Positions 4,671 through 55,246 of a stretch of 55,423 bases of DNA are shown piece after piece. Under the pieces are notes generated by a model. It saw only the letters and a program-made list of their open reading frames with translations, did no database searches and was not told where the DNA came from. The position numbers were made by a program, and so were the translations under genes. Position 1 is the stretch's first letter. The number at the start of each line of letters is the position of its first letter. Source of the DNA: a virus (taxonomy: Duplodnaviria > Caudoviricetes); the IMG/VR virus record IMGVR_UViG_3300048630_000485, positions 1 through 55,423 of that record, one strand, 5' to 3'.

Positions 4671-4700
4671 ACCGGAGGACCGCGGCCATGCCCATACGGG

Positions 4701-39581: not shown

Positions 39582-39874
39582 TACGGCGCCAACCGATAGT
39601 TCACCTGCCCCGAGGTGAGGGTGATCCGCAGAAAAAGGCGCGCTTTTCCGGTCGTTTCGTAGTGCGCGATTTCGCAGCACGGGCCGCTGAATTTCGCGAT
39701 CTGCTCGCCCTTTTCGGTCAGCGGCAGCTTCGTCGCGCCCCCGTCGGTTGAGCGCAACAGCTCGACGGTTCCGGTGAATGCTCCCGTCAGTTCAAGCCAC
39801 AGATATTGATTCTGCGGCGGATCGAACGGCCCCACGGTTCCCGAGGCTGCGGCTTGTCCTGCTAATTCATCCAT
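39581..39874 (-). CDS. Small beta-rich protein, 97 aa
   Basis: GGAGAG RBS; GAFTGTVELLRSTDGG motif. Confidence 0.75.
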   Translation of the reverse strand: MDELAGQAAASGTVGPFDPPQNQYLWLELTGAFTGTVELLRSTDGGATKLPLTEKGEQIAKFSGPCCEIAHYETTGKARLFLRITLTSGQVNYRLAP

Positions 39875-40070
39875 AACGCTCTCCGTTCGGTGTGCGGAAC
39901 GGCACATATCACGCCGGCCGCCTGGCTGAAATCGCCGAATGCCGGGGGCGCAGCCACGCGCACCATTTCCGCCGAATTTCGAAATAGCGCAATTTCGCTC
40001 TCTCGAGCACGCGGTTTTCGTTCGACCTGTTGTTTTCGGCCATTGAAACTTGAGCGAGCCTCGATTTGCG

Positions 40071-40117
40071 TGCGGTCCCCAACCGCATCCATCCTGGCCG
40101 ATCGCTGGGGAGGACCC
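40071..40117 (-). other. Candidate cos site (cosQ plus cosN-like dyad)
   Basis: Minus strand GGGTCCT (identical to lambda cosQ, 40117-40111), then 23 nt, then dyad TGCGGT-TGGGG-ACCGCA, in a large non-coding gap; terminase is gpA type. Confidence 0.6.
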
Positions 40118-40220
40118 GCGCCCCTATCGGGCCGGCTCGAGCTGGCCGGGGGCGTGATCGATCTCGGCGGGGCGGGGCGTATGGCCAAGGGGGCAAAGGG
40201 CAGGCGCGCGCTGTAGGGGG

Positions 40221-40249
40221 TTGCGGAAATAGTGCGGCGCGCCTAGATA
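40221..40249 (+). promoter_or_regulatory. Candidate sigma70-type early promoter 1
   Basis: TTGCGG-N17-TAGATA; similar to 47616-47644. Confidence 0.6.
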
Positions 40250-40297
40250 GGGGGTGCACCGCGATTCGGTGCGGATTGATTGAAAAGGAATTGCCCC

Positions 40298-40477
40298 ATG
40301 GCCCTTGCCATCGCTTCCCTCATTTTTTTCGGTTCGATCCTTGCGGGCGTCTATATGCTCGCGAGCATTGCGCTCGAGGATCACAAGCGCGCCCGCCATT
40401 ATCGCGACGTGATCGCGCCCGCATTTGAAGCACAAGCGCGCGCACGTCGCGCCGCTCGCAACGGGGGGGCAATCTAA
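40298..40477 (+). CDS. Small membrane-anchored protein, 59 aa
   Basis: GATTGATTGAAAAGGA leader; N-terminal hydrophobic helix. Confidence 0.7.
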   Translation: MALAIASLIFFGSILAGVYMLASIALEDHKRARHYRDVIAPAFEAQARARRAARNGGAI

Positions 40478-40728
40478 TGGGCAACCCCCGCCACAATCGA
40501 ATTCGCGCCCGGCAGATTACGACGCGCCGCAACCCTAGCGCGCGCGGCTTTGTCGTCACCCTGCTAGAGCGCGACATATCGCGCGACGTGCGCGACGAAA
40601 CTGGCGCGCTTGTGCAATCGTCCTGGACTCCGCTCGAGCGGTTCACGGCTGGCACAAAGCGCAATGCCGACTCGATCCACGCGGCATTGCTCGCACGTTT
40701 CACCTATGGCCCGGAGCTCGCACGATGA
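40477..40728 (+). CDS. Hypothetical protein, 83 aa
   Basis: TAATG coupling. Confidence 0.7.
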   Translation: MGNPRHNRIRARQITTRRNPSARGFVVTLLERDISRDVRDETGALVQSSWTPLERFTAGTKRNADSIHAALLARFTYGPELAR

Positions 40729-41069
40729 ACGCCCCCCTTTCCTTTGCGCTGATTATTAACGGCGATGACGCCCCTACGCCTGCCCCCCGTTGCGCCGTCG
40801 CAGATTGCGCGACGGGTGCGGGCGTCTATCACGTCGCGAGCGGGCGGATATTGCGCCCCGATTATGAGACTTTCCGGGCCGCCCTCCCCTCCCGCTTGCG
40901 CCGCTATGTCACCCGGGAGCGTGAGCCGTTCCCTTCCCTATGGTTCGACAAGCGCGCGCGGTTCGAGCATGGCCGCACCGCTCCCGCCCTGCCCTATTTC
41001 ACAATTCGCAACGCGCGCGGCGATTACGTCGCCACGGTTTATGCGGCGCTTGTGGAGGGGGAGGCGTGA
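40725..41069 (+). CDS. Hypothetical protein, 114 aa
   Basis: ATGA coupling. Confidence 0.7.
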   Translation: MNAPLSFALIINGDDAPTPAPRCAVADCATGAGVYHVASGRILRPDYETFRAALPSRLRRYVTREREPFPSLWFDKRARFEHGRTAPALPYFTIRNARGDYVATVYAALVEGEA

Positions 41070-41185
41070 TGGCCGCCCTTGCCGCCCTCGCACCGCTGGC
41101 CCTCGCCATAGGTGCGGCCATTGCCCTTGCCCCCGTTCCCGCTCAATTCGTGCGCGCATGGCGCACCCTCAATCGGAAAGGCTAA
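41069..41185 (+). CDS. Small hydrophobic peptide, 38 aa
   Basis: GGAGG RBS, TGATG coupling; MAALAALAPLALAIGAAIAL. Confidence 0.55.
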   Translation: MAALAALAPLALAIGAAIALAPVPAQFVRAWRTLNRKG

Positions 41186-41189
41186 CCCC

Positions 41190-41591
41190 ATGATCTTTGC
41201 CAACCCCTCGCACGCCCTCGCCCACCATGTCACCGGGGCAATCGCCCGGGGGCAGGGAGTCCCTATCGTGGAGCAACCCGCCACGCCTGCCCCTGCCCCC
41301 TGCCCTTGCCAGCGGTGCACCGAACCGGCGGGCCCCTTTGTGGGGGGCGAGCGCTCGAGCCGTTACCTCGCCCGGCACAAGGCCGCCAACCCGCACAACC
41401 TTGGCCGCGTGCAAGGCTGGCCGCCCCTTCACGGGTTCGAGCTATCGCGCCGCGATGCAGAGGCGCAAGGCCGGGCCGCTCCCCGTGGCGAGACGTGCCC
41501 TCCGCACATAGCGCGCCCGGGTTCCGCGTGGGCGTCATGGTGGGCGCATGGGAACGGCCCCGCGCGCTATGTCGACGGGGGGGCCGCGTGA
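41190..41591 (+). CDS. Hypothetical protein, 133 aa
   Basis: GAAAGG RBS before ATG 41190. Confidence 0.65.
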   Translation: MIFANPSHALAHHVTGAIARGQGVPIVEQPATPAPAPCPCQRCTEPAGPFVGGERSSRYLARHKAANPHNLGRVQGWPPLHGFELSRRDAEAQGRAAPRGETCPPHIARPGSAWASWWAHGNGPARYVDGGAA

Positions 41592-41797
41592 TGGCTTGGC
41601 AAATAGACGCCCGCGCTTGCTGGCAGGGTGACGCCCGCGCTTGCGCCCACCTTGCCCACCTATGCGCCACGCTATGGGGCGGAAGCTTTGCTCGCACGCG
41701 GCGCGAAATTAGGTGGAGGCGCGCGCCCCTAATCGCCGCGCTCCGCATAGGTCGCGCCGTGATCGAACGGGGGGCCTATACGCCCCGCGCACTTTAA
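41591..41797 (+). CDS. Hypothetical protein, 68 aa
   Basis: TGATG coupling; stop immediately before repeat element A. Confidence 0.6.
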   Translation: MAWQIDARACWQGDARACAHLAHLCATLWGGSFARTRREIRWRRAPLIAALRIGRAVIERGAYTPRAL

Positions 41798-41897
41798 CCG
41801 GGCGGCGGCGGGCCCGTCCCGCCGTCCCTGTAACGGCTTGGCCAGCTCGAGCCGTTACAGGGGCAACCCCGCCCCGATTGATTGAAAGGTTTACCCT
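41798..41897 (+). repeat. Structured intergenic element, copy A
   Basis: P1 GGCGGCGGG/CCCGCCGTC; P2 CCTGTAACGGCT-TGGCCAGCTCG-AGCCGTTACAGG; P3 GGGC/GCCC; GATTGATTGAAAGG. Confidence 0.85.
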
Positions 41898-42290
41898 ATG
41901 TCCTACTCCAGCGCCGCCGCCTTTTATCGTGCCTGCCCGGGCAAGCGCGTTGCGCGCGTCATCACTGGCCAGCCCGTCTTAGACGATTGGGAGGCGGCCC
42001 GCTTTAACGTGCTCGAGCAGCTCCGCGCGCAATCTTGCCCTGCCGATAAGATCACGGATGACGCCAAGGGCCTTTCATGGCCCGGCGGGTTCCTTTTGAA
42101 GCCCCGGCAATATCGCCGGGAGGTGGGCGCGCTCGAAATACGCTCGAACGATATGCTTTTTTCTAATCCCGACATGCGCGACGGCCAGCCTATCACGGGT
42201 GACAAGCGCGGCTCCCGGATTGAGGATAACCGCCTAGTGCGCGACCTCCCGAACGGCGCGCGCGTCTCGTTTGAGATCCTGCCCGATTGA
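41898..42290 (+). CDS. Hypothetical protein, 130 aa
   Basis: Single ORF bounded by elements A and B. Confidence 0.8.
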   Translation: MSYSSAAAFYRACPGKRVARVITGQPVLDDWEAARFNVLEQLRAQSCPADKITDDAKGLSWPGGFLLKPRQYRREVGALEIRSNDMLFSNPDMRDGQPITGDKRGSRIEDNRLVRDLPNGARVSFEILPD

Positions 42291-42397
42291 CGGCACGCGG
42301 GGGCGCGTCTCGCGTCCCCCGTCCCCCTAGCGGCTTGCCAGCCGTTCGAGCCGCTAGGGGGGCGCTATTGCCCCGGATTGATTGAAAGGCCTATGCC
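42291..42397 (+). repeat. Structured intergenic element, copy B
   Basis: P1 GGGGGCGCG/CGCGTCCCC; P2 CCCCCTAGCGGCT-TGCCAGCCGTTCG-AGCCGCTAGGGGG; P3 GGGGCG-CTAT-TGCCCC; GATTGATTGAAAGG. Confidence 0.85.
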
Positions 42398-42538
42398 ATG
42401 ACGAATTCCTGCCCGCGCGAGCGATCGCGCACCGTTGAAGCCCGCACCGCGACAATCGAGCGCCGGAACGCCCGCCGGGGCAAGCGCGCCCGCAAGTTTC
42501 TTGCCTTCGCAATGCCGCGCGCGCTGGAGCTGGCATAA
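42398..42538 (+). CDS. Small basic peptide, 46 aa
   Basis: ATG after element B RBS; TAATG coupling to next gene. Confidence 0.6.
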   Translation: MTNSCPRERSRTVEARTATIERRNARRGKRARKFLAFAMPRALELA

Positions 42539-42855
42539 TGGGCGCGCCTATCGTCACCGCCCCGCCCGTCTATTCGCTCGAGACCGTGGAGACCGCGCTT
42601 TGCCTATGGGAGGCCGCGCTAGAGGCGCGCGATACGCCGCTAGGGCGCGCCCTATTCGAGCGGGAAGGGACGTGCGCGGCGCGCTCCGCCGTTATCGGGT
42701 GGGCGGAGCAATGCGACTCCGATTACGCGGCTTGCTATGGGGCCGGGCAAGCGCTCGAGCCGTTCGATTGGGAGCACTGCCCCGCTTGGCTGGCCATGCG
42801 CCTTGCAATCGAATTTCCCGAGACGTGGGCCGCTATGGCCCGGGGGGACGTGTAA
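42538..42855 (+). CDS. Hypothetical protein, 105 aa
   Basis: TAATG coupling at both ends. Confidence 0.75.
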   Translation: MGAPIVTAPPVYSLETVETALCLWEAALEARDTPLGRALFEREGTCAARSAVIGWAEQCDSDYAACYGAGQALEPFDWEHCPAWLAMRLAIEFPETWAAMARGDV

Positions 42856-43181
42856 TGGCCGCCACAATCGAAAAGCGCCGCACCGTGCACGGCGGCCCCG
42901 ATAGCGCCCTATCGGTGGAGGTCTCCCCCGTCCGTAAATGTGCCGACGGGTTCGAGACGTGCGCGCATGAACCGGAAAGCGCGACGCGATTCGGCGTTTA
43001 TATTCGCAATCCGCTTGCGCTTCACGTTCGCGATTTCGTGACGCCATCACGGAACGGTAACGCCACCTCGCAACGGCTCCAGCTGGATCGCTTGCAAGCC
43101 TATGGCGAGGCCATCACATTCGCGAGCGCGCTTGCAGATCATTTAGGGTGCGGCGTCCATGTGCCCGGGGGGTTCGCATGA
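42855..43181 (+). CDS. Hypothetical protein, 108 aa
   Basis: TAATG and ATGA coupling. Confidence 0.7.
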   Translation: MAATIEKRRTVHGGPDSALSVEVSPVRKCADGFETCAHEPESATRFGVYIRNPLALHVRDFVTPSRNGNATSQRLQLDRLQAYGEAITFASALADHLGCGVHVPGGFA

Positions 43182-43597
43182 CGCCCCGGGAGCTATGGCG
43201 GGACACCTACCGGGCGGCGCGCGGGGGCGGGTTTGTCTCGCGGGCCGATTGGCCAGCCGTGCACGCCCTTGCCCTTGAATGGGCAGGCCATACGCCCCGG
43301 GCACGGTTCCGGGCCGCACGGGTGACGACGGCGGCGCAATATGCGCTCGAGCGCTTCCCGGATGGCCGCACGACGCTTGCAAGCGCGGTCTTGAACGGGT
43401 GGGGAAGCAAAAACCCTTGGGGGCCGCGCCGGGGCCGCCGTTCCGATACCTCCCCGAGATCGCACGGGGCGCGCATTGCCAGCCGTGCGCGGGCCTTGCG
43501 TGAACGGCTCGAGCGGCGCGGCGTGCTCGAATGTGACGCGGGCGGCTGGGTTCGCGAGGTGCGCGGCGCTCCCGGCTATGGCTGGCACTATACTTGA
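43178..43597 (+). CDS. Hypothetical Arg-rich protein, 139 aa
   Basis: ATGA coupling; stop immediately before element C. Confidence 0.65.
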   Translation: MTPRELWRDTYRAARGGGFVSRADWPAVHALALEWAGHTPRARFRAARVTTAAQYALERFPDGRTTLASAVLNGWGSKNPWGPRRGRRSDTSPRSHGARIASRARALRERLERRGVLECDAGGWVREVRGAPGYGWHYT

Positions 43598-43698
43598 ACG
43601 GGCGGCGGCGGGTTGCGTCCCGCCGTCCCTCCAACCCCTTGCCAGCCGTGCGAGGGGTTCGAGGGGCGACCCTGCCCTAGATTGAAAGGACTCGAATT
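43598..43698 (+). repeat. Structured intergenic element, copy C
   Basis: P1 stem identical to copy A; P2 CCCTCCAACCCCT-TGCCAGCCGTGCG-AGGGGTTCGAGGG; P3 GGGCG/TGCCC; GATTGAAAGGA. Confidence 0.85.
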
Positions 43699-45783
43699 AT
43701 GAACGCTCAAACGACGATCACGCCCGCGAACGATTGCCACGACGGCGCGCCCGCTATCGGGACGCCTGCCAACCCGCCCGGCGGCGGTGCGACGGCCTAT
43801 GTAGTGGCGGTGGAACGCGAGACGGCGGAGACCTTCACGATTGGTGCGGGCATGGCGCGCAACCGGTTCCGCGTCACTTTCGCACGCGGTGACGGCTATG
43901 TAAGCTCCCCGCTTTCCGAGCATATCGCGGCCCCCATGATCGCGAGGGCGCGCGGCGTTGCGCCTATCAGCTCGAGCGAAGCGGCGGAGCTATTCGAGAC
44001 GGCGAAGCGGTTACAGGCGGAGCAGCGCGCGGCGGCGCGTGCGGAGCAGGCGCGGAGCGAAGCCAGCCGGGACTCCTCCCGGGAGCTTGTCGCGCGGTTG
44101 CGCCCGGCATGGGCCAAGGCCGCTATTGTGGCCGAGCTTGTCGTAGATCAGTCGGACTCGATGACGGACTATTGGGGATCGACGCGCTCGCGCACGGTTG
44201 TCCTCGCATGGTCGCGCCATACTCGCGATCTATTCCCGGAGCTTCGCGCGGCGGCGGCTCTATTGCCCGAGACGGCGGAGCTTCAAGGCGCGCCGGAAAG
44301 CGCGGAGCACCGCGAAAAGTATTCGATGGGCGGCGGGTATTATCTGAAAGCCGGTTCGCGGCATTCGGACGGCTGGAAGGTCTCGAAGGATAGTTACACG
44401 GTCGCGACGGGCCGCGACGGGCTGGAATTCACCGAGGCGGCGCGCGCCGGGTTCGACGTGAAGCAAGCCGCACGGCTGGCCAGCTCTGCCCCGCGTGCAC
44501 CGCGCGCCACGCCCGCGCCGGGATCGGAAAGCGCCACGGCGTGCGGGTTCGAGGTGTCCGAGCATATCCACACAAAGAAAGGCTTTCGCATGTGGATTGC
44601 GACGGCAAGCGAACGGGTGGCGCGCGACGTATTCGAGGCGCAACGCGACGCGGCAAAGGCCTTGGGCGGTTGGTATTCGCGCCCGTGGGGCAAGACGCCC
44701 GGGGGCTTCGCCTTCAAGGATCACGACGCGGCTTTGCAATTCGTGATCGAGCAGGGCAGCGGCGATGCGCCGGAGCCGGGCCCGGGCAAGGGTTCGAGCG
44801 ATACGACGGCACCGGCGCGCACCGGCGTCGCTGATAAGCTCCGGGAGCTGGCCGACGGCATGGCCGACGCGGTGGCCGATTGCTTCCGCCCTCGCGACAC
44901 GAACACGCCAAAGAAAGCCCGGCAGGCCGCCGAGAAGCGGAACGACGGAGTCGAGCTTGAACGGGCACAAGCGATCATGCGGGCGCTGGCTGATGCGCAC
45001 GACGCGGGGACCGTTCCGGCGTGCCTGGCAGGCGTGACGACGAAAAAGGCGGCGCTCGAGCTGGCCAAGGAGGAATGCGACCGGAGCCGGGCCGGGTATT
45101 ACGACGCGGGAATTCTGACCGGGCGGCCCTATCCGTGGGCCGATATCGGCAAGCATGACGTGGCGGAGCGCGCCGCAGCGGCGTGGGCGTTGATTGCCAA
45201 GGGTGGCGACGCTGGCCCGGATCGGGCCGCCGAGCTCGCACTTGCGCAAAAGCTCGAGGCTCTCCGGTTCGCGAAGATCCCGGGTTATTTCCCCACCCCC
45301 GCCCCTATCGTGGCGCGCATGATCGAGGCCGCCGGGATCGAGGCTGGCCAGCGGGTGCTAGAGCCAAGCGCCGGGAGCGGGGCAATCGCTGACGCGGTGC
45401 GCGACGCCGGGGCCAAGGTCGAATGCGTGGAGGCGTGGAATTCGCTTGCCGAGGTGCTCGAGGCAAAGGGCCATCGCGTCACGCACGGCGATTTCATGGG
45501 CCAGCCGGTCGAGGGTGCGAGCTTTGACGCGGTGCTGATGAATCCGCCCTTCGAGAAGGCGCAGGACGTGGCGCACGTTCGCCACGCGCTTAAATTCGTG
45601 AAGCCCGGCGGCGTGCTGGTGGCGATCATGGGCGCGGGCGTCACGTTCCGAAAAGATCGGGCATATGCCGAATTCCGCGAACTGGTGGACGATATGGGCG
45701 GCGATCTTGTCGAGCTTCCCGCCGGGGCGTTCAAGGAAAGCGGCACCGGCGTTGCGAGCGTGATGGTGACGCTTCACCCGTAA
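43699..45783 (+). CDS. Multidomain protein with C-terminal N6-adenine DNA methyltransferase, 694 aa
   Basis: YFPTP, VLEPSAGSG, LMNPPF, GAFKESGT; N-terminal domains with SDSMTDYW and EHREKYSMGGGYYL. Confidence 0.88.
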   Translation: MNAQTTITPANDCHDGAPAIGTPANPPGGGATAYVVAVERETAETFTIGAGMARNRFRVTFARGDGYVSSPLSEHIAAPMIARARGVAPISSSEAAELFETAKRLQAEQRAAARAEQARSEASRDSSRELVARLRPAWAKAAIVAELVVDQSDSMTDYWGSTRSRTVVLAWSRHTRDLFPELRAAAALLPETAELQGAPESAEHREKYSMGGGYYLKAGSRHSDGWKVSKDSYTVATGRDGLEFTEAARAGFDVKQAARLASSAPRAPRATPAPGSESATACGFEVSEHIHTKKGFRMWIATASERVARDVFEAQRDAAKALGGWYSRPWGKTPGGFAFKDHDAALQFVIEQGSGDAPEPGPGKGSSDTTAPARTGVADKLRELADGMADAVADCFRPRDTNTPKKARQAAEKRNDGVELERAQAIMRALADAHDAGTVPACLAGVTTKKAALELAKEECDRSRAGYYDAGILTGRPYPWADIGKHDVAERAAAAWALIAKGGDAGPDRAAELALAQKLEALRFAKIPGYFPTPAPIVARMIEAAGIEAGQRVLEPSAGSGAIADAVRDAGAKVECVEAWNSLAEVLEAKGHRVTHGDFMGQPVEGASFDAVLMNPPFEKAQDVAHVRHALKFVKPGGVLVAIMGAGVTFRKDRAYAEFRELVDDMGGDLVELPAGAFKESGTGVASVMVTLHP

Positions 45784-45858
45784 GCGCATGGCCCGGCGCG
45801 GATTGGCCAGCCGCGCCGGGATCGAACCGGCCACGATTGACACGAAAGGACTCTAGAT
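45784..45858 (+). repeat. Structured intergenic element, reduced copy D
   Basis: CCCGGCGCGG-ATTGGCCAG-CCGCGCCGGG; CGATTGACACGAAAGGA. Confidence 0.7.
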
Positions 45859-46440
45859 ATGCAGTTTTCAACCTCCCGCCCCCTCGCTCTCGTGATGAAT
45901 ACGGGCGACGCCTTCGAGGGGCCGCGCTTTGTCCTGCCCGCCGGTTCCAAGGTCGCGCTTGTGCGCGGGATCGAGGGCGGCACGGTCGACGGTTACGCCG
46001 TGGGCGATGAAACCCAGCTCGCGGAGCTGACCGGCAACCCGCACGACGCGGCGCACCGCTGGACTCGGGTTCCCGCGAACGCCGTTAAATGCCGCGACGC
46101 GAACGGCAACGGGCAGCAGCTCGAGGGGATCATTGCAGCCGAGGCGGCCAAGGCCCGGCACGCGGCGGAGCGCGCGGGGCACGTCTGGCAGGCGTTCACC
46201 GTCACGCTTCGCAGCGGCGCGATTTACTATTGGCAGGGGTATGGCCCTTATGGCGAGCGCACCGAGGCGCTCGCGATCAAGGCGGCGGAGGCACTCGAGG
46301 GCGGGCGAATGCTCGAAGGCGTGGGGCCGTGGAGCATCGGGGCCTATCCCATGGCGTCAACCGACGTGGCGCTGATATCGCAGGGGCCGGGTATCTGGCC
46401 CGTTGCGCACCCTATCACGGGAAAGGCGGTGCAATCGTGA
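45859..46440 (+). CDS. Hypothetical protein, 193 aa
   Basis: ATG after element D RBS. Confidence 0.8.
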   Translation: MQFSTSRPLALVMNTGDAFEGPRFVLPAGSKVALVRGIEGGTVDGYAVGDETQLAELTGNPHDAAHRWTRVPANAVKCRDANGNGQQLEGIIAAEAAKARHAAERAGHVWQAFTVTLRSGAIYYWQGYGPYGERTEALAIKAAEALEGGRMLEGVGPWSIGAYPMASTDVALISQGPGIWPVAHPITGKAVQS

Positions 46441-46979
46441 GCGTTCAGCTACGCCCAGACGAGGCGCTAGAGGCGCTGCAAGCCGTGGATGCGGAAAGCG
46501 CGGCGCGGTGGGAGGCGCTCTTGTGCGCCGCCACGAGCGCAATCGGCGCGGAGCTGGCCCGGCATCACGATTGCATAGCAGGCGAGGCGACCATGCAGGC
46601 GGGCTTCGGCGGGCTTTGCGTGCCGATGAATCCGGCCCGGCCCGGCCAGCCGTTCCCGGATGATTGGGAGCACCTTGACGACGGCGGGCGCGCCGAATGG
46701 GAGGCCGAGGCCGAGCGGCTCGAACGCGAAGCCGAGGAAGGCCCGGCAAAGCATGACGGCACGGTCAACGGCTGGCGGCTTGTCCTGCAATCCGGGCGCG
46801 CCTGCTATTGGTTCAAGGCGGGCGTTTATGTCGCGCTCCGCCCAGGCCAGGAACCGAGCGACGGCATGGGCGGCTGGACGCGCCTGGACTCGCTGATGAA
46901 AGCCAAGGGCGAGGCCGCCGATTTCATCGCCCTGCAATGCAACGCTAATGGCCACCTCAAAGGCCATGGCGAAGCCTGA
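46437..46979 (+). CDS. Hypothetical protein, 180 aa
   Basis: GTGA coupling. Confidence 0.7.
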   Translation: MSVQLRPDEALEALQAVDAESAARWEALLCAATSAIGAELARHHDCIAGEATMQAGFGGLCVPMNPARPGQPFPDDWEHLDDGGRAEWEAEAERLEREAEEGPAKHDGTVNGWRLVLQSGRACYWFKAGVYVALRPGQEPSDGMGGWTRLDSLMKAKGEAADFIALQCNANGHLKGHGEA

Positions 46980-47021
46980 CACCTCCACCCCCGATTGATC
47001 GAAACGAAAGGAAACGACACC

Positions 47022-47603
47022 ATGACGACACAGACAGCACTATTCCGCACCGGCCATGGCTATGAGCGAAGCGAGGAAGGCCCCTGCAACGCCTTCGACG
47101 GTCTCGAAATTGTGGCCAACCCCCTTGGCGGGTTTAGCGCGGCGGAGCGGGAGCGGCGCGGGTTCGATCGGGCCGACGGCTCGCCCGGAGTGACCTACGG
47201 CTCGCACGCGCTCTATCTCTTGCGAAGCGCTGGCGATGCGCACCCGGCCCGGCGGGAGTATTTCGTGGCGGTCCATAACGGATCGGGGCGGCAAGTCTGG
47301 CGGCTCCCGGCCTGTTACGGCACGCTTGCCGAGACGGTCGACGCGCTGGCGGCCATGCCGGAGCGGGCGCTTTATTCGCTCCTCTGGGGCATTGTCGAGG
47401 CGCTGGATAACACCCGGCGCGCGGCGCGTGACGACACCCGGGCAGAATGGATCAGGGCGACGGTGCAAAAGCGCGTGAAGGTATCGCGCCAGCCGTCAAA
47501 GGGCCGCGCCTTTGCGTGGATCGAGCCGGAGCGGCGCGAGGGCGAGACCGAGGAGCAGCACAAGGTCCGTTGCATATTCGCGAAGCCGCCGGGCGTGAAA
47601 TAG
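47022..47603 (+). CDS. Hypothetical protein, 193 aa
   Basis: CCCGATTGATCGAAACGAAAGGA leader (46990-47012). Confidence 0.8.
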   Translation: MTTQTALFRTGHGYERSEEGPCNAFDGLEIVANPLGGFSAAERERRGFDRADGSPGVTYGSHALYLLRSAGDAHPARREYFVAVHNGSGRQVWRLPACYGTLAETVDALAAMPERALYSLLWGIVEALDNTRRAARDDTRAEWIRATVQKRVKVSRQPSKGRAFAWIEPERREGETEEQHKVRCIFAKPPGVK

Positions 47604-47615
47604 CGTGCAACTGGG

Positions 47616-47696
47616 TTGCGCACATAGCGCGCCCCGCTTATATGGCCAGAGCGGGCAAGGCCAGAATGCCCGCGCAGATTGATCGAAACGAAAGGA
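47616..47696 (+). promoter_or_regulatory. Candidate early promoter 2 with GGCCAG-loop hairpin and shared leader
   Basis: TTGCGC-N17-TATATG; GCGGGCA-AGGCCAGAA-TGCCCGC; GATTGATCGAAACGAAAGGA. Confidence 0.65.
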
Positions 47697-47704
47697 TTTA
47701 CCCC

Positions 47705-48421
47705 ATGCTTATGCAATTCGACGCCGCCACCCGAGTCGGGGCCGTCGCCCTCGCCGCCCTTCGCATGTTTCAAGAAAGCGCCTATGAGGCGCGCCAGCCC
47801 TATGCCGATATTCTCGACGCGGGCGGCCTGCACAAAAAGGCCCTTTCCAATACCGCATCAGCCGTGGACGCGATCTGCGAAGCGTTCGCCCATAGCGGCG
47901 CGCTGGTGATCGACACCGAGGCGGCGGCCAAGGGCACCCGGGCGCTTTATCCCGACGAAACCGCGGGCGGCCAGCCGGTCCCCGGCCCCTCGCCGCGCGA
48001 GACGGCCATGCTCGCCGCTATCAATGAGCTTCTTTGCAATCGTGACCACCTAGAGCTGCATCGCGATGATCGCGCCATGCTGGCCGAGGCCGCCGGGATC
48101 GAGGACCCGCAGGCCAAGGCCTGGCGCGTCAGGCTGACCGCCGAGGGCATCGATGTAACGGCGCATGACGAGGAGGCCGCGCGCCGCCACGCTCTGGCCG
48201 ACGCGCGCGAATTCATGGCGCAAAACACCGTCACGCTAGGCGATATCGAGCCGGGCGACGCGAGTGACGCAGAGGACGACGTAGGAATCGAGGTCGAATG
48301 TATGCGGGGCGATCACACCGATTTCACGTTTGCCGCGACCTATACCGTGACCGTGCTTTGCCCCGAGGAGGAGGCCGAGGAAGCCGCCCGCGAGATCCTC
48401 GCGGAAGGAGGGGAATTCTGA
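47705..48421 (+). CDS. Hypothetical acidic protein, 238 aa
   Basis: ATG after shared leader. Confidence 0.75.
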   Translation: MLMQFDAATRVGAVALAALRMFQESAYEARQPYADILDAGGLHKKALSNTASAVDAICEAFAHSGALVIDTEAAAKGTRALYPDETAGGQPVPGPSPRETAMLAAINELLCNRDHLELHRDDRAMLAEAAGIEDPQAKAWRVRLTAEGIDVTAHDEEAARRHALADAREFMAQNTVTLGDIEPGDASDAEDDVGIEVECMRGDHTDFTFAATYTVTVLCPEEEAEEAAREILAEGGEF

Positions 48422-48741
48422 TGGCCAGTTTCCTTTTCGATTTCACCCTCAACGCCACGGCCCGGGTGGAGGCTGACACCGAGGAGCAGGCCCGCGCCGC
48501 GATCATGGCGGAGCTGGAATGCTATGGGCCAGTGGCGACGATTACGGCGCGCGACGGCACCATGCTCGAGCTTTCCGAGATTTCACCCGCGAAAGGCCCC
48601 GAGGCGCTGGAGCTTGTCGAGGTCGACGGCGAGGTCCCGGAGCCTGCGCGCACCTTTGCCCACCACCCCGAGGCCTGCCCTTCCAAGCACTGGAACGGCG
48701 GCGACGATATCTGCGCCGATTGCGGAGCGGATCTGAATTGA
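48421..48741 (+). CDS. Hypothetical protein with C-terminal Cys/His cluster, 106 aa
   Basis: TGATG coupling; CPSKHW...ICADC. Confidence 0.75.
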   Translation: MASFLFDFTLNATARVEADTEEQARAAIMAELECYGPVATITARDGTMLELSEISPAKGPEALELVEVDGEVPEPARTFAHHPEACPSKHWNGGDDICADCGADLN

Positions 48742-48844
48742 AGGCGCGCGGGCTTCGGCCCGCCGCCCCCGCAAGGGCTTGGCCAGCCGGTCGAGCCTTT
48801 CCGGGGGCGCTATTGCCCCGAACGATTGAAAGGAAACGATTACC
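48742..48844 (+). repeat. Structured intergenic element, copy G
   Basis: P1 GCGGGC-TTCG-GCCCGC; P2 CCCCGCAAGGGCT-TGGCCAGCCGGTCG-AGCCTTTCCGGGG; P3 GGGGCG-CTAT-TGCCCC; CGATTGAAAGGA. Confidence 0.85.
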
Positions 48845-50608
48845 ATGATGAACACCACCACCGCCGCCCTTCGCGCCGCTGTAACCGCCCTGACCCTTGG
48901 CACCGCTGGCCGTGCCGCCATTGTCCACCCGCGCAGCACTATCCCCTTGCTGCAATGCGTCTTGCTCTGCGCGTCGGACGCGGGCGCGCCTGTCATCGAA
49001 GGGTGCAGCCTTGACCTTTCCGCTTCCACCACCCTGCCCGGCACCGCGTCGCGCGGCTTCCGCGTCGCTGTCGACGGTCGCGCGCTCAAGGCCGCTGTCG
49101 CCAAGCTCAAGGCCAAGGAGGTCGAGCTGACCGATCTGGGCGGCTCGATCACGTTGCGCAGCGCGGACGGCACCGGCCCCACGGTCAAGCTCGCCACGAA
49201 TAGCGAGGCGCACGATTACCCGCGCGTTTCGCCCACCGCCCCGGCAGGCGTCGCGCTGTCGTTCCCGGTCGAGCAATTCGCAACCGATCTGGGCCGCCTG
49301 ATGACGGCTATGTCGAAAGAGGAAACCCGGTATTACCTCAACGGCGTATTCATGCACCGCACCGGCGACGGGCAGCTGGCCATGGCCACGACCGACGGCC
49401 ACCGCCTTGTGAGGGTCTCGCGCCCCGCGCCTGCCGGAACCGAGACGGTTGCGGACACGATCATTCCCGCCGAGGCCGTGGCGCTCTTGTCGCGCGTCAC
49501 GAAAAAGGGCGAGGGGGACGTGGCGCTCACATTCCACGGCGTGCGCCTGGCCATCGAAGCGAACGGCTGGCGCATCGTCACAAAGACTGTGGATGGCACG
49601 TTCCCGGATTACACCCGCGTGATCCCTTGCCACAATGAGCACCGCGTCACGGTCGACACCGCCGCGCTGGCGCAGGACGTGGAAGCGCTGACCGCGCACC
49701 AGACCGGCAGGCACCGCAATTTCACGCTTTCGGCTGGCGACGGCTGGGCCACGGGCTGGGCCGTCGACGTGGATGCAGGGAGCGCCGGGGCCGTGCTCGA
49801 GAGTGCCGAAGGCACCACCACCGGGGCCGAGACGTTCGCGAGCTTCAACGCGGCCTATTTCACCGCGTCGCTCGGCCTGGTCAAAGGCAAGGCCACGATT
49901 GCCATGCAGGATTACGGCGCGCCGGTGCGGTTCGAGTATGTCGACGCCCCGGAGCTGACCGCCGTGCTTATGCCGATGCGCAACGCTGATCGCGCTTACA
50001 CCCGGGACGACGTGGCGCGCCTCAATATGACGGCGGTGGAACGGTTCGAGGATCGCGCCCCCGGCCTGGTGGGCGTCGAGCTGGCTTCGATGCGCGCGGA
50101 TCTGCGCCGTCTCACCGTCGCAGCGATCGAGGAAAAGGCACGCGACGCGGTGCGCGACGGGGCCGATGCGGTCGAGGCACGGCGCGGGGCTCGGCTGGCC
50201 ATCCTCGCCCGGCTCGAAGCTATGGCAGGCGAGCCGGGCCGGGCCACGGCGCAGCTCGAGCACCAGCCGCGCGGCGAATTCGCGGGCAATTTCGCAGGCT
50301 GGGCCGCGTGGTGCGACGATATGACCCGCTTCTGGCGCTTCCATGCCAGCGAAGCGCGCGCCGCTGTCATGGAAGCCGCCGCCCCTGTCATGGATGGCAA
50401 CGCCGCTATCATGGAAGCCATGCAACGCCGTGAGCGCCGCCTGCGCATGGTGCTCGAGGGCCGCAAGGCGCAGCTCGCCGCCGTGGGCCAGGCTCTCGCC
50501 CGGTCGCAGGATCGAAACGCCGTGCTGCAGCGCCGCGTAGCCAGCGCGGGCAGCTCCTCGCTCGCCGCCGCTATCGCCGACACCCTCGCCTTGCAGAACG
50601 CGGCCTGA
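48845..50608 (+). CDS. dnaN: DNA polymerase III beta-clamp homolog with C-terminal helical extension, 587 aa
   Basis: IPLLQCVLL, EETRYYLNGVF, ATTDGHRL, DGTFPDYTRVIP, VLMPMR. Confidence 0.85.
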   Translation: MMNTTTAALRAAVTALTLGTAGRAAIVHPRSTIPLLQCVLLCASDAGAPVIEGCSLDLSASTTLPGTASRGFRVAVDGRALKAAVAKLKAKEVELTDLGGSITLRSADGTGPTVKLATNSEAHDYPRVSPTAPAGVALSFPVEQFATDLGRLMTAMSKEETRYYLNGVFMHRTGDGQLAMATTDGHRLVRVSRPAPAGTETVADTIIPAEAVALLSRVTKKGEGDVALTFHGVRLAIEANGWRIVTKTVDGTFPDYTRVIPCHNEHRVTVDTAALAQDVEALTAHQTGRHRNFTLSAGDGWATGWAVDVDAGSAGAVLESAEGTTTGAETFASFNAAYFTASLGLVKGKATIAMQDYGAPVRFEYVDAPELTAVLMPMRNADRAYTRDDVARLNMTAVERFEDRAPGLVGVELASMRADLRRLTVAAIEEKARDAVRDGADAVEARRGARLAILARLEAMAGEPGRATAQLEHQPRGEFAGNFAGWAAWCDDMTRFWRFHASEARAAVMEAAAPVMDGNAAIMEAMQRRERRLRMVLEGRKAQLAAVGQALARSQDRNAVLQRRVASAGSSSLAAAIADTLALQNAA

Positions 50609-50660
50609 CCCCATCCCCCGGGGCGGCACAGTGTCGCCCCGGGCCAACATAGGAAACGAC

Positions 50661-50984
50661 ATGCTCCCGCACATTTTCCCACCGCTCGAATGCCTGCCCG
50701 AAGATCGCGCTACGCTCGCAAAGTCGATGATCGACAAAGGCATTGAAACCAGCGCGGCACACGAAACCGCTGACCTTGCGCTTCACGCTGCGACCGAGGC
50801 CATGAAAACGCTCGAAACTGTCGCGGCGCGTGGGTCGGACTGCGGCGTCCAATTTCAAGCCGTCGATATCGCCATGCAAATCCTACGGGCCGACCTTCAC
50901 CGGAAGGATGAAATGCTGCGCAAGGCGGCCCGCAATTTCGGGTTTTCACCGATTGAAGCCAACCTCACTCTGAAAGGCGATTAA
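50661..50984 (+). CDS. Hypothetical protein, 107 aa
   Basis: AGGA RBS after hairpin CCCGGGGCG..CGCCCCGGG. Confidence 0.7.
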   Translation: MLPHIFPPLECLPEDRATLAKSMIDKGIETSAAHETADLALHAATEAMKTLETVAARGSDCGVQFQAVDIAMQILRADLHRKDEMLRKAARNFGFSPIEANLTLKGD

Positions 50985-50985
50985 C

Positions 50986-51531
50986 ATGACCACCACCCCC
51001 GACCTCACCAATGCCCGGCGCATCGCGTTCGCCGATACCTCCCACCTTGGCCGCCCCCGGTGGACCGAGCTGGCTGTGCATCACGTCCCGCAGGCCAGCG
51101 ACGGCAAGTGCTGGGTGGCCGAGAATGTGGGACGCTCGAGCGTCGCGGGCGAAGAGACGCGCCGCGTGTTCCTCGCCACGTTCGGGCTCGAACGCGCGCT
51201 CGAGCTCTTCGATGATTCCGCTATCGGGATCGCGGTCAAAGCCCAGGCGCGGGATTACGCCGAGACGCAGCTCGGGGCCCATGGCCACCCTGCCAGCCGT
51301 GAGCGTGCCGCTGTGCCGGGCGAGGCGCTCGAGAGCGACCAAGAGGCGCTGCGCTGGCTCTTCCCCTCCGAAATGCCGCGCTCCCACATGGCGCGGGCTC
51401 TGGGGATCGGTGAGAGCACGTTGCGTAAGCAGCTCGGCGGGACCGGCGTTCGCGTCGGGCTGCGCCACCTCCTGCCGTTCGTGGATCGCGACGCCTTTCT
51501 CGCCAGCGTGACGGAACAGGCCGATGCTTAA
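50986..51531 (+). CDS. Protein with C-terminal HTH, 181 aa
   Basis: RSHMARALGIGESTLRKQL. Confidence 0.7.
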   Translation: MTTTPDLTNARRIAFADTSHLGRPRWTELAVHHVPQASDGKCWVAENVGRSSVAGEETRRVFLATFGLERALELFDDSAIGIAVKAQARDYAETQLGAHGHPASRERAAVPGEALESDQEALRWLFPSEMPRSHMARALGIGESTLRKQLGGTGVRVGLRHLLPFVDRDAFLASVTEQADA

Positions 51532-51793
51532 ACTATCGGAACGCCAGCGCGGCAAGCTCCTGGTGATCGAGGGCGACATGGCGGGTGCGGTGTCGCGCAA
51601 CGGCGCGGCGGCGAAGCGCGGCAAGTTTCGTCGCGAACCGGTCGGGCACGTCGCTGCACCGGAGCGCACGCTCTATGCCTTGGAACGGCGCGGCCTTGTC
51701 GCAAAGGCACCTCTGCCGGATAGCGCCACGGCTCTGCTGTGGACCCTCACTCCGGAAGGAAAGGAATCTCTCGATGCCAACCGCGAACAATGA
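51524..51793 (+). CDS. Small winged-helix-like protein, 89 aa
   Basis: TLYALERRGLV..WTLTPEG. Confidence 0.65.
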   Translation: MLKLSERQRGKLLVIEGDMAGAVSRNGAAAKRGKFRREPVGHVAAPERTLYALERRGLVAKAPLPDSATALLWTLTPEGKESLDANREQ

Positions 51794-52220
51794 ACCGCCG
51801 TGGCGCGCAGCGCGGAACAAGGCCAAGCCGCACGAATGGCTGGTCGAGCGCACCGTGTTCGATGCCGACGGGAAACCGATGCGCGAGGTCGCGCGCCACA
51901 CCAGAGAGAACGGCGAGGCCCAGCCGCACACGTTCTGCAGCGAGGATGACGCCTGGGCCATGTGCGACCAGCTCAACCCCCGCCCCGGTGAGACGCACAC
52001 ACGCCCGCTGACCATGACCGAGCTGCATTGGCTTCGCCGCGTGGGCCAAGCTCCGGAGGGCACCATGCAGCCCGAAACCACCACCGCCCTGCTCTCGCTC
52101 GAGGCGCGCGGGCTGGTTTACTCACGCGCCGAGCATGACCGGCCCGGCTTCGACCGGTGGACCCTTACCGACGCGGGGAAGCAACACCTCGCCGATCGCG
52201 AAACGAAACGAAAGGATTGA
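51774..52220 (+). CDS. Hypothetical protein with winged-helix-like C-terminus, 148 aa
   Basis: ALLSLEARGLV..WTLTDAG, similar to preceding gene. Confidence 0.65.
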   Translation: MPTANNEPPWRAARNKAKPHEWLVERTVFDADGKPMREVARHTRENGEAQPHTFCSEDDAWAMCDQLNPRPGETHTRPLTMTELHWLRRVGQAPEGTMQPETTTALLSLEARGLVYSRAEHDRPGFDRWTLTDAGKQHLADRETKRKD

Positions 52221-53344: not shown

Positions 53345-53361
53345 AACGAAAGGCCATAACC

Positions 53362-55215: not shown

Positions 55216-55246
55216 ATTGAAACGGCATATCGAAGGAGAAAGACTG

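Follow-up and report, generated by a model that had tools for sequence, protein, structure and literature searches.

A three-way-junction element between stop and start codons in the early operon of an uncultured phage: a candidate leader module of the downstream genes

Why would the early, rightward operon of an uncultured phage carry a folded element of ~100 nt before several genes of unassigned function? The window, that is, the whole stretch of DNA analysed here, is the complete phage genome (55,423 bp), and the relatives of its genes are found in Alphaproteobacteria. Gene strands and one promoter-like site suggest that a single long early transcript runs rightward from ~40.2 kb, headed by the following site:

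40221..40249, + strand: candidate early promoter (TTGCGG, 17 nt, TAGATA) where the rightward operon starts; 8/12 consensus positions

As our promoter scan required 9/12 consensus positions, we only infer a promoter here.

Position and copies of the element

The first-pass annotation placed four full copies in the gaps between a stop codon and the next start, at 41798, 42291, 43598 and 48742. All of them were recovered, and every one (4/4) spans exactly from the stop codon to the next ATG on the coding strand. In the following list, the bit scores refer to model R1, which was built from the full copies, and the helix names are those of the fold described below.

41798..41897, + strand: copy c1; P0 41800-41805 with 41869-41874, P1 41807-41823, P2 41824-41864, box 41876-41889, ATG 41898; 87.4 bits
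42291..42397, + strand: copy c2; P0 42292-42295 with 42369-42372, P1 42299-42319, P2 42321-42363, box 42376-42389, ATG 42398; 96 bits
43598..43698, + strand: copy c3; P0 43600-43605 with 43672-43677, P1 43607-43624, P2 43625-43667 with one C.C mismatch, box 43680-43689, ATG 43699; 85.9 bits
48742..48844, + strand: copy c4; P0 48743-48746 with 48814-48817, P1 48748-48763 (UUCG loop), P2 48764-48809 with one C.C mismatch, box 48824-48833, ATG 48845 (clamp gene); 92.2 bits

Over their length the copies share 60-74% identity; they contain identical stretches of 13-18 nt, and are connected by the direct-repeat families D1, D2, D4 and D10. Full elements are confined to non-overlapping gene junctions without translational coupling, the remaining junctions being ATGA-type overlaps, and in this descriptive sense the region is indeed divided into cassette-like units. 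None of the ten proteins neighbouring the elements could be assigned to a PHROG family. The genome G001 carries L101; in 401 genomes sampled from its class the element was not found, and thus it is not a host repeat among the genomes searched. No match to an Rfam family, a tRNA, or a consensus promoter or terminator was obtained either, in agreement with the earlier failure to recognise a known family.

Two reduced copies had also been proposed:

45784..45858, + strand: reduced copy r1; 10-bp hairpin 45792-45820 with loop AUUGGCCAG, box 45835-45849, ATG 45859; R1 18.5 bits, E 0.008
47604..47704, + strand: doubtful reduced copy r2 (annotated at 47651); small alternative hairpins, two of them with a GGCCAG loop (about 47634-47673), box 47677-47695, ATG 47705; R1 10.5 bits, E 1

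By these scores the former is marginal, and the latter, which has in common with the full copies only the box and GGCCAG in the loops of two small hairpins that exclude each other, is inseparable from chance. Neither folds better than its shuffles (z -0.03 for r1 and -0.44 for r2).

The GATTGA..AAAGG box yields 14 pattern matches against 1.42 expected, a number reached in 0/100 shuffles. Eleven of these 14 matches, some overlapping, make up eight distinct plus-strand sites from 40274 to 48833, each a few nucleotides ahead of an ATG. Two such sites, which were not part of the first-pass annotation, carry the box only:

40274..40288, + strand: start-associated box GATTGATTGAAAAGG before the first gene (ATG 40298), with a 6-bp hairpin upstream and no junction
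46993..47011, + strand: box-only site GATTGATCGAAACGAAAGG before ATG 47022, hairpin absent

Fold, strand and conservation

The element is predicted to form a three-way junction, P0-P1-P2, followed by the ribosome-binding site. P1, a variable GC hairpin, comes straight after the upstream stop codon in the full copies, and P2, a stem with a loop of 4-9 nt, follows at a distance of 0-1 nt. Both are enclosed by P0, a helix of 4-6 nt whose 5' strand begins 1-2 nt past the stop codon in c1-c4 as well as in the homolog described below. Beyond the junction, an AU-rich, single-stranded linker reads GAUUGA ... GAAAGG and is followed by 7-11 nt and the AUG. The third hairpin, P3, proposed earlier had to be abandoned, as it occurs in the minimum free energy (MFE) structure of 0/4 copies: its 5' arm belongs to the P2 base, while its 3' arm pairs with the 5' strand of P0 and closes the junction. 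The P2 stem proposed earlier is present in all four copies, yet it measures 17-18 bp instead of 12-13 bp, because the CUUG of the reported loop pairs with CGAG, a pairing that includes a U.G in 4/4 copies. The C(UUCG)G tetraloop reported for one P1 was located in c4. Two uninterrupted 18-bp stems, 41824-41864 and 42320-42364, head the hairpin list of the whole genome (55 kb), in which the next stem has 16 bp.

Plus-strand MFE values of c1-c4 range from -54.9 to -60.7 kcal/mol (z -3.1 to -4.65), compared with -48.2 to -58.3 kcal/mol (z -0.5 to -3.0) for the minus strand, so that the plus strand is steadier by 2.3-7.9 kcal/mol. The plus-strand folds contain 13 G.U pairs, no A.C and two C.C mismatches; the earlier remark that the wobbles are G-T on the plus strand thus holds for 13/13, and the minus strand pairs worse for this reason. 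G.T wobbles would fit a fold of the plus DNA strand equally well.

Covariation was assessed on a very small sample, four paralogous copies and one homolog. Among the 17 aligned pairs of P2 in c1-c4, standard pairing is found in 66/68 cells and both sides have changed in 6/17 pairs, which bears out the claim that the P2 stems differ and still pair; when the partners are shifted by 1-3 columns, only 30-57% are paired. The observed pairing or covariation score was reached in 0/500 shuffles, a control that overstates the significance since the copies are related. With the homolog added, 81/85 cells are paired and 9/17 pairs are compensatory, although this five-sequence alignment leans towards structure, having been fitted to the model. 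One pair of P0 is G-C, A-U, G.U and G.U in the different copies.

A single homolog was found beyond this genome, L026:2881-2952 on an IMG/VR contig (37.2 bits, E 2e-6; 80 loci, 1.4 Mb). It is an ortholog of c4 and, like c4, lies directly upstream of a clamp gene, whose product is only about 35% identical to the clamp here. Its own MFE structure is again the P0-P1-P2 junction, with altered stems that still pair and an apical loop that differs; the junction core common to both phages comprises P0, the P2 base and UGCCC ahead of the ribosome site. No similarity could be detected between the gene that precedes the L026 clamp element and its counterpart here. Besides, a second copy, decayed in its 3' arm, lies at L026:1740-1831, ahead of a gene homologous to the 46-aa gene downstream of c2 (30 aa at 47% identity). 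Both elements of L026 are hence linked to homologs of the downstream genes here, and the element travels together with its downstream gene. The loop CUUG(G)CCAGC..CGAG, which had been described as fixed, is so within this genome (4/4 full copies, while the mid-stem varies) but not across phages, where the different apex of the L026 homolog marks it as lineage-specific. Compensatory P2 changes, wobbles confined to G.U and a homolog that keeps the fold with changed letters support the earlier proposal that selection acts on a sense-strand fold.

Possible roles of the element

At a probability of roughly 0.45, we favour a reading in which the element acts in cis as a leader or punctuation module of the sense RNA, belonging to the leader of the downstream gene and serving stability, processing and an open ribosome site. 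The active form is inferred to be RNA, not plus-strand ssDNA. The most likely mechanism would be mRNA punctuation, in which the gaps between uncoupled genes on a long transcript are filled by a compact three-way junction that locks the C-rich spacer into a stable knob. An endonuclease might cut in the AU-rich linker or in P2, whereupon the knob would shield the upstream segment at its 3' end, and it would keep Rho and exonucleases from loading. In addition, it would keep the ribosome-binding site of the next gene unpaired, and the two actions would presumably affect stability and translation. The mean unpaired probability from -16 to +3 is 0.55-0.71 at the ribosome sites of the elements, compared with 0.40-0.42 in the surrounding 170 nt. 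However, the ribosome sites of genes without a junction are similarly open (0.46-0.69), implying that the junction is not required for access.

A plain stabiliser or insulator needs no conserved apex, yet the apex is kept, and together with the density of GCCAG this hints at a sequence-specific reader. The junction would then be a mere scaffold for an operator, where a phage or host RNA-binding protein recognises the (G)GCCAG loop on the CUUG/CGAG stem with its conserved U.G and times the translation or decay of the accessory genes. An apex that is invariant above a variable mid-stem speaks for such a reader, as does the fact that r1 and r2, which are unrelated in other respects, also have GGCCAG in their hairpin loops. 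GCCAG itself occurs seven times in 729 nt of gaps, whose minus strand lacks it, versus 19 times in ~9.6 kb of same-strand coding sequence (~4.8-fold denser in the gaps), and the different apex in L026 would be expected if loop and reader co-evolve in each lineage. Against this, GCCAG is a common word, with 130 plus-strand copies genome-wide, some of them within genes (41306, 43249 and 43476); c1-c4 are paralogs whose common apex may reflect recent descent or gene conversion; and no candidate reader emerged from the neighbouring proteins. We regard an operator as unlikely, albeit the strongest of the alternatives.

Rather improbable is a neutral or selfish repeat, copied together with new genes or spread in a REP/MITE-like manner, whose sole function would be to carry a ribosome site. 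Such a repeat could account for copies that are 60-74% identical and move with the downstream gene, for the decayed 3' arm of the small-gene copy in L026, and for the shuffle-like folds of r1 and r2, whereas it does not explain why the mid-stem changes are compensated and non-random, why the fold is retained in a phage with so diverged a clamp, or why the repeat is missing from the 401 genomes.

Processive antitermination, or an anti-Rho RNA, by which the element would re-arm the polymerase or block Rho loading and so allow readthrough of the 15-kb operon, seems very unlikely. HK022 put and lambda nut/boxB are the antitermination analogues, but these occur once, behind a promoter, and not ahead of each gene block. 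Adjacent hairpins on nascent sense RNA, recurring along one long operon, would suit this role, and the C-rich spacers might otherwise be good Rho substrates; nevertheless, no downstream terminator-like sites in need of suppression and no boxA-like or known-family match were detected.

A DNA-level site of cassette gain and loss, at which a plus-strand hairpin or the repeat itself serves recombination, is very improbable indeed, and the ssDNA or integron-like site proposed earlier received no positive support. Integron attC sites likewise are imperfect palindromes after each gene unit of which one strand folds better; they keep conserved boxes at the stem base with a variable middle and loop, follow the gene of their cassette and work with an integrase, whereas here the apex and junction are kept and the element goes with the downstream gene, and no integrase or recombinase family was found among 19 proteins scanned with Pfam (a scan that is not exhaustive). 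Gene blocks are bounded by elements, both L026 elements are followed by homologs of the downstream genes found here but preceded by other neighbours, and 13-18 identical nt could support illegitimate exchange. In addition, a relative in run X4 lacks 41556-41794, a deletion whose right end is the first base of the stop codon preceding c1. This is, however, the one of five replacement or deletion breakpoints in near relatives that abuts an element edge, the others (42837/43176, 45470/45523, 47971/48625 and 50612/50987) lying off the edges, and wobbles of the G.U type only leave the other strand pairing worse. A promoter, which the sections of the PeSL report on which we draw (PMC2839356) present as a requirement, was not found.

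Ordinary transcription signals, with P1 as terminator and a promoter in or behind P2 as in a moron- or PeSL-type cassette, are the least probable: a GC hairpin does follow the stop codon directly and the apex TTGCCA matches 5/6 positions of the sigma-70 -35 hexamer, but no U tract follows any hairpin of the four copies, as noted at first pass, the spacing between the apex and the GATTGA box is not constant (39-46 nt), and a scan of 15.9 kb returned two promoter-like and 12 terminator-like sites (shuffle means 2.5 and 13.8), none within an element.

Comparison with known systems

Coliphage T7 carries RNase III sites between its early genes, which are single irregular hairpins with an internal loop. 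These are likewise structured sense RNA between the cistrons of a long early transcript, and they leave the upstream message with a 3'-terminal hairpin, as we propose for the element. In contrast to them, the element is a predicted junction fused to a conserved start box, and it has neither sequence similarity to them nor an Rfam match.

The PeSL of T4-type phages, in the sections of the report considered (PMC2839356), are small repeated cassettes between non-essential, unassigned genes of a plastic region whose content varies among relatives, a setting like the present one. They consist of a strong sigma-70-like promoter and a terminating stem-loop, whereas neither a promoter nor a U-tract terminator was found here and there is little evidence that exchange takes place at the elements.

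The closest described analogue, judged from the sections of the cluster K mycobacteriophage paper on which we draw (PMC3203893), is the SAS/ESAS system, and the element adds a new example to the little-understood leader repeats of certain phages. SAS is likewise a short, asymmetric box, situated just ahead of the starts of some genes and containing the ribosome-site core; it is limited to the non-structural half of the genome and nearly always points in one orientation. As described there, it accompanies the family of the downstream gene from phage to phage and is not found in the host, and those sections assign it no function. About half of the SAS boxes have a 17-bp imperfect inverted repeat with a 4-13-bp spacer immediately upstream (PMC3203893), similar to P2 with its 17-18 bp and 4-9-nt loop at four (perhaps five) of the eight boxes here. 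The box sequences are unrelated, SAS reading GGGATAGGAGCCC (PMC3203893) versus GATTGA..GAAAGG here. The ESAS half-sites follow a consensus per subcluster, whereas the mid-stem here differs, with compensation, among copies of one genome. Moreover, a second hairpin and a closing helix turn the present element into a predicted three-way junction abutting the upstream stop codon, and the host group is another one, as the gene relatives here are alphaproteobacterial.

Early operon and its gap elements

The record is complete: it consists of one contig, whose 55,423 bases are the same as those of the window. It carries tailed-phage genes (tape-measure protein, lambda-type large terminase and portal), an HTH_36 replication initiator gene that adjoins a DnaB-like helicase gene, and genes for a DnaN-like clamp, an ATP-dependent ligase and two DNA methyltransferases. 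Pfam analysis of 19 proteins returned a methyltransferase domain, clamp, ligase, tape measure, terminase gpA, lambda-type portal, the HTH_36 initiator, a second DNA methylase and a deacetylase, and no RNase, antiterminator or recombinase was found among these 19 proteins, which are a part of the proteome. All ten proteins searched from the early gene blocks were without a PHROG family. Blastn against 50,697 phage records gave no match and hence no close cultured phage, all protein matches were below 60% identity, and tblastn with the clamp and the helicase led to distant phages only. Relatives of the window genes reside in prophage-like stretches of Alphaproteobacteria (Mangrovibrevibacter, Ahrensia, Tritonibacter, Leisingera), and near-identical DNA is present in hydrothermal-vent and marine metagenome runs, no RNA run being among those listed. 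As a side observation, the HTH_36-domain gene (23079-24035, minus strand) contains four tandem copies of a ~22-nt unit (GGGTGCACCCTGTGCACGGGG-like) at 23616-23703 (and 23557-23579), each unit being palindromic, which resemble the iterons of a lambda-style origin within an initiator gene. To the left of these repeats, at a distance of 40 nt, is a 10-bp palindrome that includes TTGCCAG together with its complement.

From ~40.2 kb to the right end, every gene is carried by the plus strand, and the early region has 67% G+C vs ~62% in the rest of the genome. The 400-nt gap that precedes the first gene contains a candidate promoter (TTGCGG, 17 nt, TAGATA; 40221-40249), which scores below the threshold of the consensus scan. 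Most neighbouring early genes overlap (ATGA or similar) and should therefore be translationally coupled; gaps divide the operon into the blocks g1-g6, g7, g8-g11, g12, g13-g14, g15, g16-g17 and the clamp gene. The elements and start boxes of this region are as follows.

40274, plus strand: start box without junction
41798-41897, plus strand: full element copy c1
42291-42397, plus strand: full copy c2, followed by a gene for 46 aa
43598-43698, plus strand: full copy c3, followed by a gene for 694 aa
45784, plus strand: reduced copy
46993, plus strand: start box without junction
47651, plus strand: reduced copy
48742-48844, plus strand: full copy c4, followed by the clamp gene (ATG 48845)

The start box, GATTGA followed after 0-7 nt by GAAAGG, occurs at eight plus-strand sites between 40274 and 48833, with an ATG 7-11 nt 3' of every box. 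The pattern matched 14 times in all (1.4 expected; a number reached by 0 of 100 shuffles), and 11 of these matches fall at the eight sites. GAAAGG, which we take to be complementary to the 3' end of alphaproteobacterial 16S rRNA, also stands alone, without GATTGA, before other early genes. Since the boxes at 40274 and 46993 come without the junction, box and junction are separable modules. The A+T content of the linker is the highest of the region, and the unpaired probability of the ribosome site is 0.55-0.71 vs ~0.41 for the surroundings.

Two of the downstream proteins deserve a brief description. The clamp gene (48845-50608) encodes a C-terminal extension of ~210 aa; its nearest relatives have 569-587 aa, more distant phage clamps 785-989 aa, and the clamp of the related IMG/VR contig L026 (2959-5430) 823 aa. 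Extended phage clamps thus constitute a family. The 694-aa protein (43699-45783) combines an N-terminal part of no known kind with a C-terminal methyltransferase domain; relatives of it are encoded by Alphaproteobacteria and by 47 metagenome loci. At one related locus (L100, 10001-12342), its homolog is split at the domain boundary into two overlapping genes.

Fold of the element and its homologs

All four full copies were found where the first-pass annotation had placed them, each taking up all of the space between a stop codon and the following ATG. They are connected by the direct-repeat families D1, D2, D4 and D10 and share 60-74% identity. With R1, a covariance model of the long stem P2 plus tail of the full copies, c1-c4 score 86-96 bits (by construction) and their minus-strand images 19-28 bits; besides these and the 45784 copy, no further match fell below E 0.19 in 55 kb. 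Folding energy favours the plus over the minus strand by 2.3-7.9 kcal/mol (z -3.1 to -4.65 vs -0.5 to -3.0). As had been annotated, the wobble pairs are G-T on the plus strand, 13 G.U and no A.C being counted in the plus-strand folds, which also contain two C.C mismatches in the same column of c3 and c4. The better folding of the plus strand together with the G.U-only wobbles argues that the plus (sense) strand is under selection. Most simply, the selected strand would act as mRNA in a dsDNA phage, a fold of the plus DNA strand being the alternative.

The proposed row of three hairpins was replaced by a three-way junction, since the minimum-energy fold of all four copies is one in which a closing helix, P0, encloses the variable GC hairpin P1 and P2. 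The 5' arm of P0 comprises 4-6 nt starting 1-2 nt past the stop codon (GGGCGG in c1 and c3, GGCA in c2, GGCG in c4), and its 3' arm is the conserved (C/U)(C/U)GCC(C) just 5' of the GATTGA box. One P0 pair reads G-C, A-U, G.U and G.U in the four copies. The junction helices are separated by 0-1 nt, and a 4-nt strand leads from P2 back to P0. The third hairpin of the earlier proposal, P3, needs the G-run of the P2 foot; it therefore competes with P2 and is absent from every best fold.

P2 itself had been described as a stem of 12-13 bp. It is in fact longer, with 17 aligned pairs (17-18 bp), as the CUUG before the supposed loop pairs with the CGAG after it, and a U.G pair is found within this CUUG/CGAG helix in four of four copies. 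The claim that the stems differ between copies and still pair proved sound: standard pairs occupy 66 of 68 cells, six pairs are altered on both sides, and none of 500 shuffles matched the observed pairing, the compensatory-cell count or the covariation score. Pairing falls to 30-57% when the partners are shifted by 1-3 columns. Variation is confined to the mid-stem, with five foot pairs, four apex pairs and one mid A-U pair being invariant. The two unbroken 18-bp P2 stems are the longest in the hairpin list for the genome. The sole other stem of such length is a perfect 16-bp hairpin between structural genes (11622-11665, flanks AAAG/CTTT), which looks like a two-way terminator.

For the two reduced copies the annotation held in part. 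They share the loop word and the box with the full copies, but the full-copy fold is absent and their folding is no better than that of shuffles (z -0.03 and -0.44). The copy at 45784 has a single 10-bp hairpin with the loop AUUGGCCAG plus the box (18.5 bits, E 0.008 with the P2 plus tail model), and the copy at 47651 has small, mutually exclusive hairpins, two of which show GGCCAG in the loop. The word GCCAG occurs 7 times in 729 nt of gaps vs 19 times in ~9.6 kb of coding sequence, and not at all on the minus strand of the gaps, an excess that is only a hint because the word is common genome-wide (130 plus-strand copies). TTG(G)CCAGC was counted 11 times on the plus strand and twice on the minus strand, with 8 of the 11 plus-strand copies between 41.3 and 48.8 kb. 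Where g16 and g17 overlap, a hairpin (48406-48438) has a ribosome site in its stem and an ATG plus TGGCCAG in its loop, which may be due to chance.

The nearest relatives of the clamp (P0002-P0005; 48-52% identity) come from ENA and Logan, on contigs of up to 61 kb. Of 80 IMG/VR loci whose clamp genes are more distant, one, from the 29-kb contig L026, matched the element with 37.2 bits (E 2e-6), directly upstream of its clamp gene, like c4 in the window. The minimum-energy fold of this L026 gap is again P0-P1-P2, with P0 (GGCA with UGCC) starting 1 nt past the stop codon. In the P2 foot, the return strand to P0 and the start box, the two phages can be recognised as alike; the mid-stem has other letters with pairing kept, and the apex is different. 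The "fixed loop" of the annotation is hence not fixed across phages, the L026 homolog having a different apex on the same junction. With L026 included, compensatory pairs amount to 9/17 and paired cells to 81/85, figures that lean towards structure because the alignment was fitted to the model. At L026 1740-1831, the 5' arm of a c2-like P2 is kept and the 3' arm has decayed, and the gene that follows is a homolog of the 46-aa gene following c2 (47% over 30 aa, pairwise E 7e-5). No similarity was detectable between the gene upstream of the L026 clamp element and its counterpart upstream of c4, and the g10 homolog in L026 lies on the opposite side of the c2-like element. As downstream homologs are kept and upstream genes differ, the element goes with the downstream gene, and the genes around it have been reordered.

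Pattern scans of IMG/VR, with the apex plus foot or with features common to both phages, yielded chance matches or the L026 contig only. The returns were 18 stretches, every one of them due to chance when inspected, 4 stretches that reached at most 11.5 bits with R1, and 1 stretch, the L026 contig. L026 was also the sole return when protein patterns were searched with the g10 alignment. Gap hairpins of another make are present at loci whose methyltransferase-fusion gene is related at 40-55% identity; none of them amounts to the window element, the best being the doubtful candidate L113: R1 gave it 22 bits (E 0.009) over 52 such loci, and a second covariance model, R2, 24.2 bits (E 0.0015) over 99 loci, with no other locus below E 0.079. 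On G001, the genome containing L101, the best E with R1 was 0.3. The known distribution of the element is small, namely the lineage of the window phage and one IMG/VR contig. L113 and L115 have a GC hairpin with a CCAG word in the loop just upstream of the methyltransferase-fusion homolog. L100 has its own two-copy gap element (9905-10000 and 12343-12442), consisting of the stop codon in TGACCCA, a covarying GC hairpin, TGGGCCA, a second hairpin with the loop ATTGAACC and a ribosome site, suggesting that lineage-specific leader repeats are common in this group. Moreover, an oriented CCCTA(Y)CC(G)-type word was observed in many copies in early regions of related prophage-like loci, inside genes and between them (L099, ~4680-8520; L113, 1892, 2296, 6986, 9872, 10997 and 11050; L115, 3853, 5726 and 9238), some L113 copies lying in hairpin loops.

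Proposed function and alternatives

The element is a real, strand-specific and structurally conserved leader element. We consider it most likely to serve as punctuation of the mRNA, given the compensated fold of the sense strand, its occurrence only at positions where coupling is broken, the start of P0 1-2 nt past the stop codon, the open, A+U-rich ribosome site at the 3' foot and the linkage to the downstream gene. The junction would pack a C-rich untranslated spacer into a stable knob that offers no foothold for Rho or 3' exonucleases, and after a putative cut in the linker or in P2 the knob could remain as a protective 3' end of the upstream message, with the ribosome site of the next gene presumably staying open beside the junction. 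A terminating ribosome would have to melt P0, and we speculate that upstream translation could thereby remodel the foot next to the ribosome site.

A trans-acting factor that reads the apical loop is kept as a live alternative, the conserved apex (the U.G pair and (G)GCCAG) being unaccounted for by the punctuation reading. In its most elaborate form, which we regard as rather improbable, the junction would be an RNA platform recognised through its (G)GCCAG loop by a hypothetical co-evolving phage factor, with the accessory genes controlled as one regulon in their processing and translation. The different apex of L026 would then arise because the putative reader co-evolves with the loop, and the regulon would comprise the first-expressed accessory genes, possibly ones for counter-defence. 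Since the leader of each gene would be such a platform, recombination at the 5' edge of the element would be enough to bring further genes into the regulon.

Several descriptions exist of leader or spacer elements that recur in the non-structural half of a phage genome (SAS/ESAS, PeSL, T7 processing sites), and to our knowledge nobody knows the readers of such elements outside T7 and T4. We think that the window element may work like the RNase III sites of T7. In a T7-type processing site, RNase III cleaves within a roughly two-turn double-stranded segment; P2 has 17-18 bp, and its stacking on P0 (4-6 bp) appears possible from the fold.

The closest described system is SAS/ESAS of cluster K mycobacteriophages. 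SAS is a 13-bp start-associated box that precedes some of the non-structural genes and almost always faces the same way. About half of the boxes are extended on their upstream side (ESAS) by an imperfect inverted repeat of 17 bp whose spacer measures 4-13 bp; both are kept with the downstream gene family, are not found in the host and are of unknown function (PMC3203893). The window resembles this system in its P2 of 17-18 bp with a 4-9-nt loop at four of eight boxes plus a 10-bp hairpin at a fifth, in having all boxes on the plus strand (40.2-48.8 kb) and in the downstream-gene linkage seen in L026 (PMC3203893). However, the window box, GATTGA..GAAAGG, is unlike the 13-bp SAS consensus, so that the architecture is shared and the family is not, and the window element differs further by mid-stem covariation within one genome, a second hairpin and a closing helix at the stop codon (PMC3203893). 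PeSL cassettes do not match, the window element lacking their defining features (PMC2839356).

The absence of a known family, as stated in the first-pass annotation, was borne out. Rfam 15 gave no match at gathering thresholds over the whole window, and at E<=1 over 39800-55423 there were three weak matches, two of them outside the elements and the third, Ms_IGR-5, overlapping c2 at noise level (19.2 bits vs a gathering score of 45). ARAGORN found no tRNA or tmRNA gene in the window, and no published description was found in the literature searched at the level of titles and abstracts. For now the element counts as a candidate for a new RNA motif. It is a tractable case for experiments, as its three-way junction is stable and shows clear compensatory changes, a U.G pair is conserved, its distance from the upstream stop codon is fixed at 1-2 nt, and a second phage keeps the fold with another apex. 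If it controls the first-expressed accessory genes, it would help to learn how genes without known function are organised in uncultured phages. It may also be of use as a portable insulator-plus-ribosome-site part for high-GC bacteria.

We give low odds to an RNA anti-CRISPR or mimic of a solitary CRISPR repeat. A word similar to the start box closes many CRISPR repeats, and words of this kind do turn up in the CRISPR papers listed by a word search, but the likeness is limited to the box beside a small hairpin, the box halves are 3-7 nt apart in three of eight sites, and P2 is far longer than the stem of a CRISPR repeat. Copies of the kind expected for a host REP/BIME-type repeat were not found in the genomes searched: the P2 apex-plus-base pattern occurred in none of 401 genomes sampled from the class of G001.

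Signals of several other kinds were rejected. Among 12 terminator-like sites in 39500-55423, none lies in an element and none on the plus strand, and the tails past P1 and P2 are C- or G-rich, in agreement with the annotated lack of a U tract. Two consensus sigma-70 sites (sigma-70-type hexamers, 16-18 nt spacing) were found, neither in an element, which disfavours a promoter or PeSL cassette; counts of promoter-like and terminator-like sites in the region are not above those of shuffles. A fixed-spacing promoter is excluded by the variable apex-to-box distance (39-46 nt), and inspection by eye of the apex and flanks for sigma-70, sigma-54, ECF-type and Caulobacter-type promoters revealed no consistent -10 or spacing. 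A palindromic dsDNA operator is rejected since the half-sites differ among copies but stay complementary, a T-loop or tRNA-like reading of the P2 3' arm fits c2 only, and a Chi-like or other oriented DNA word was rejected as the main explanation since it would leave the covarying stems unexplained, a k-mer scan of 40.25-52.3 kb having found no strongly over-represented oriented 7-9-mer.

Possible exchange at the elements

In integron attC sites, conserved core boxes occupy the stem base and the centre varies; the sites lie 3' of the gene of their cassette and work with an integrase. In contrast, the window element is conserved at the apex and junction and stays with the downstream gene, and no integrase was found among the 19 proteins scanned. 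Contigs of four DNA runs were aligned to the window for comparison with near relatives. Those of run X3 span all six elements, their aligned pieces having 3-8% substituted letters, which indicates that the elements were kept in a diverged strain. The suggestion that gene gain and loss break at the elements was borne out at one joint among the differences listed, the joint 41555/41795 of run X4, which ends at the stop codon before c1 and is the only one of its kind. The four others, from the X3/X4 comparison, speak against it: 42837/43176, where one gene was swapped at its own boundaries, 45470/45523 (inside g12), 47971/48625 (mid-gene) and 50612/50987. Support for exchange at the elements is accordingly thin. 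The X4 deletion begins, at 41555, inside a long imperfect inverted repeat (41503-41577) across the 3' end of g5. The left arm of this repeat shares the 15-mer GCACATAGCGCGCCC with the gap at 47620 (47620-47634), forming a second, smaller repeat family.
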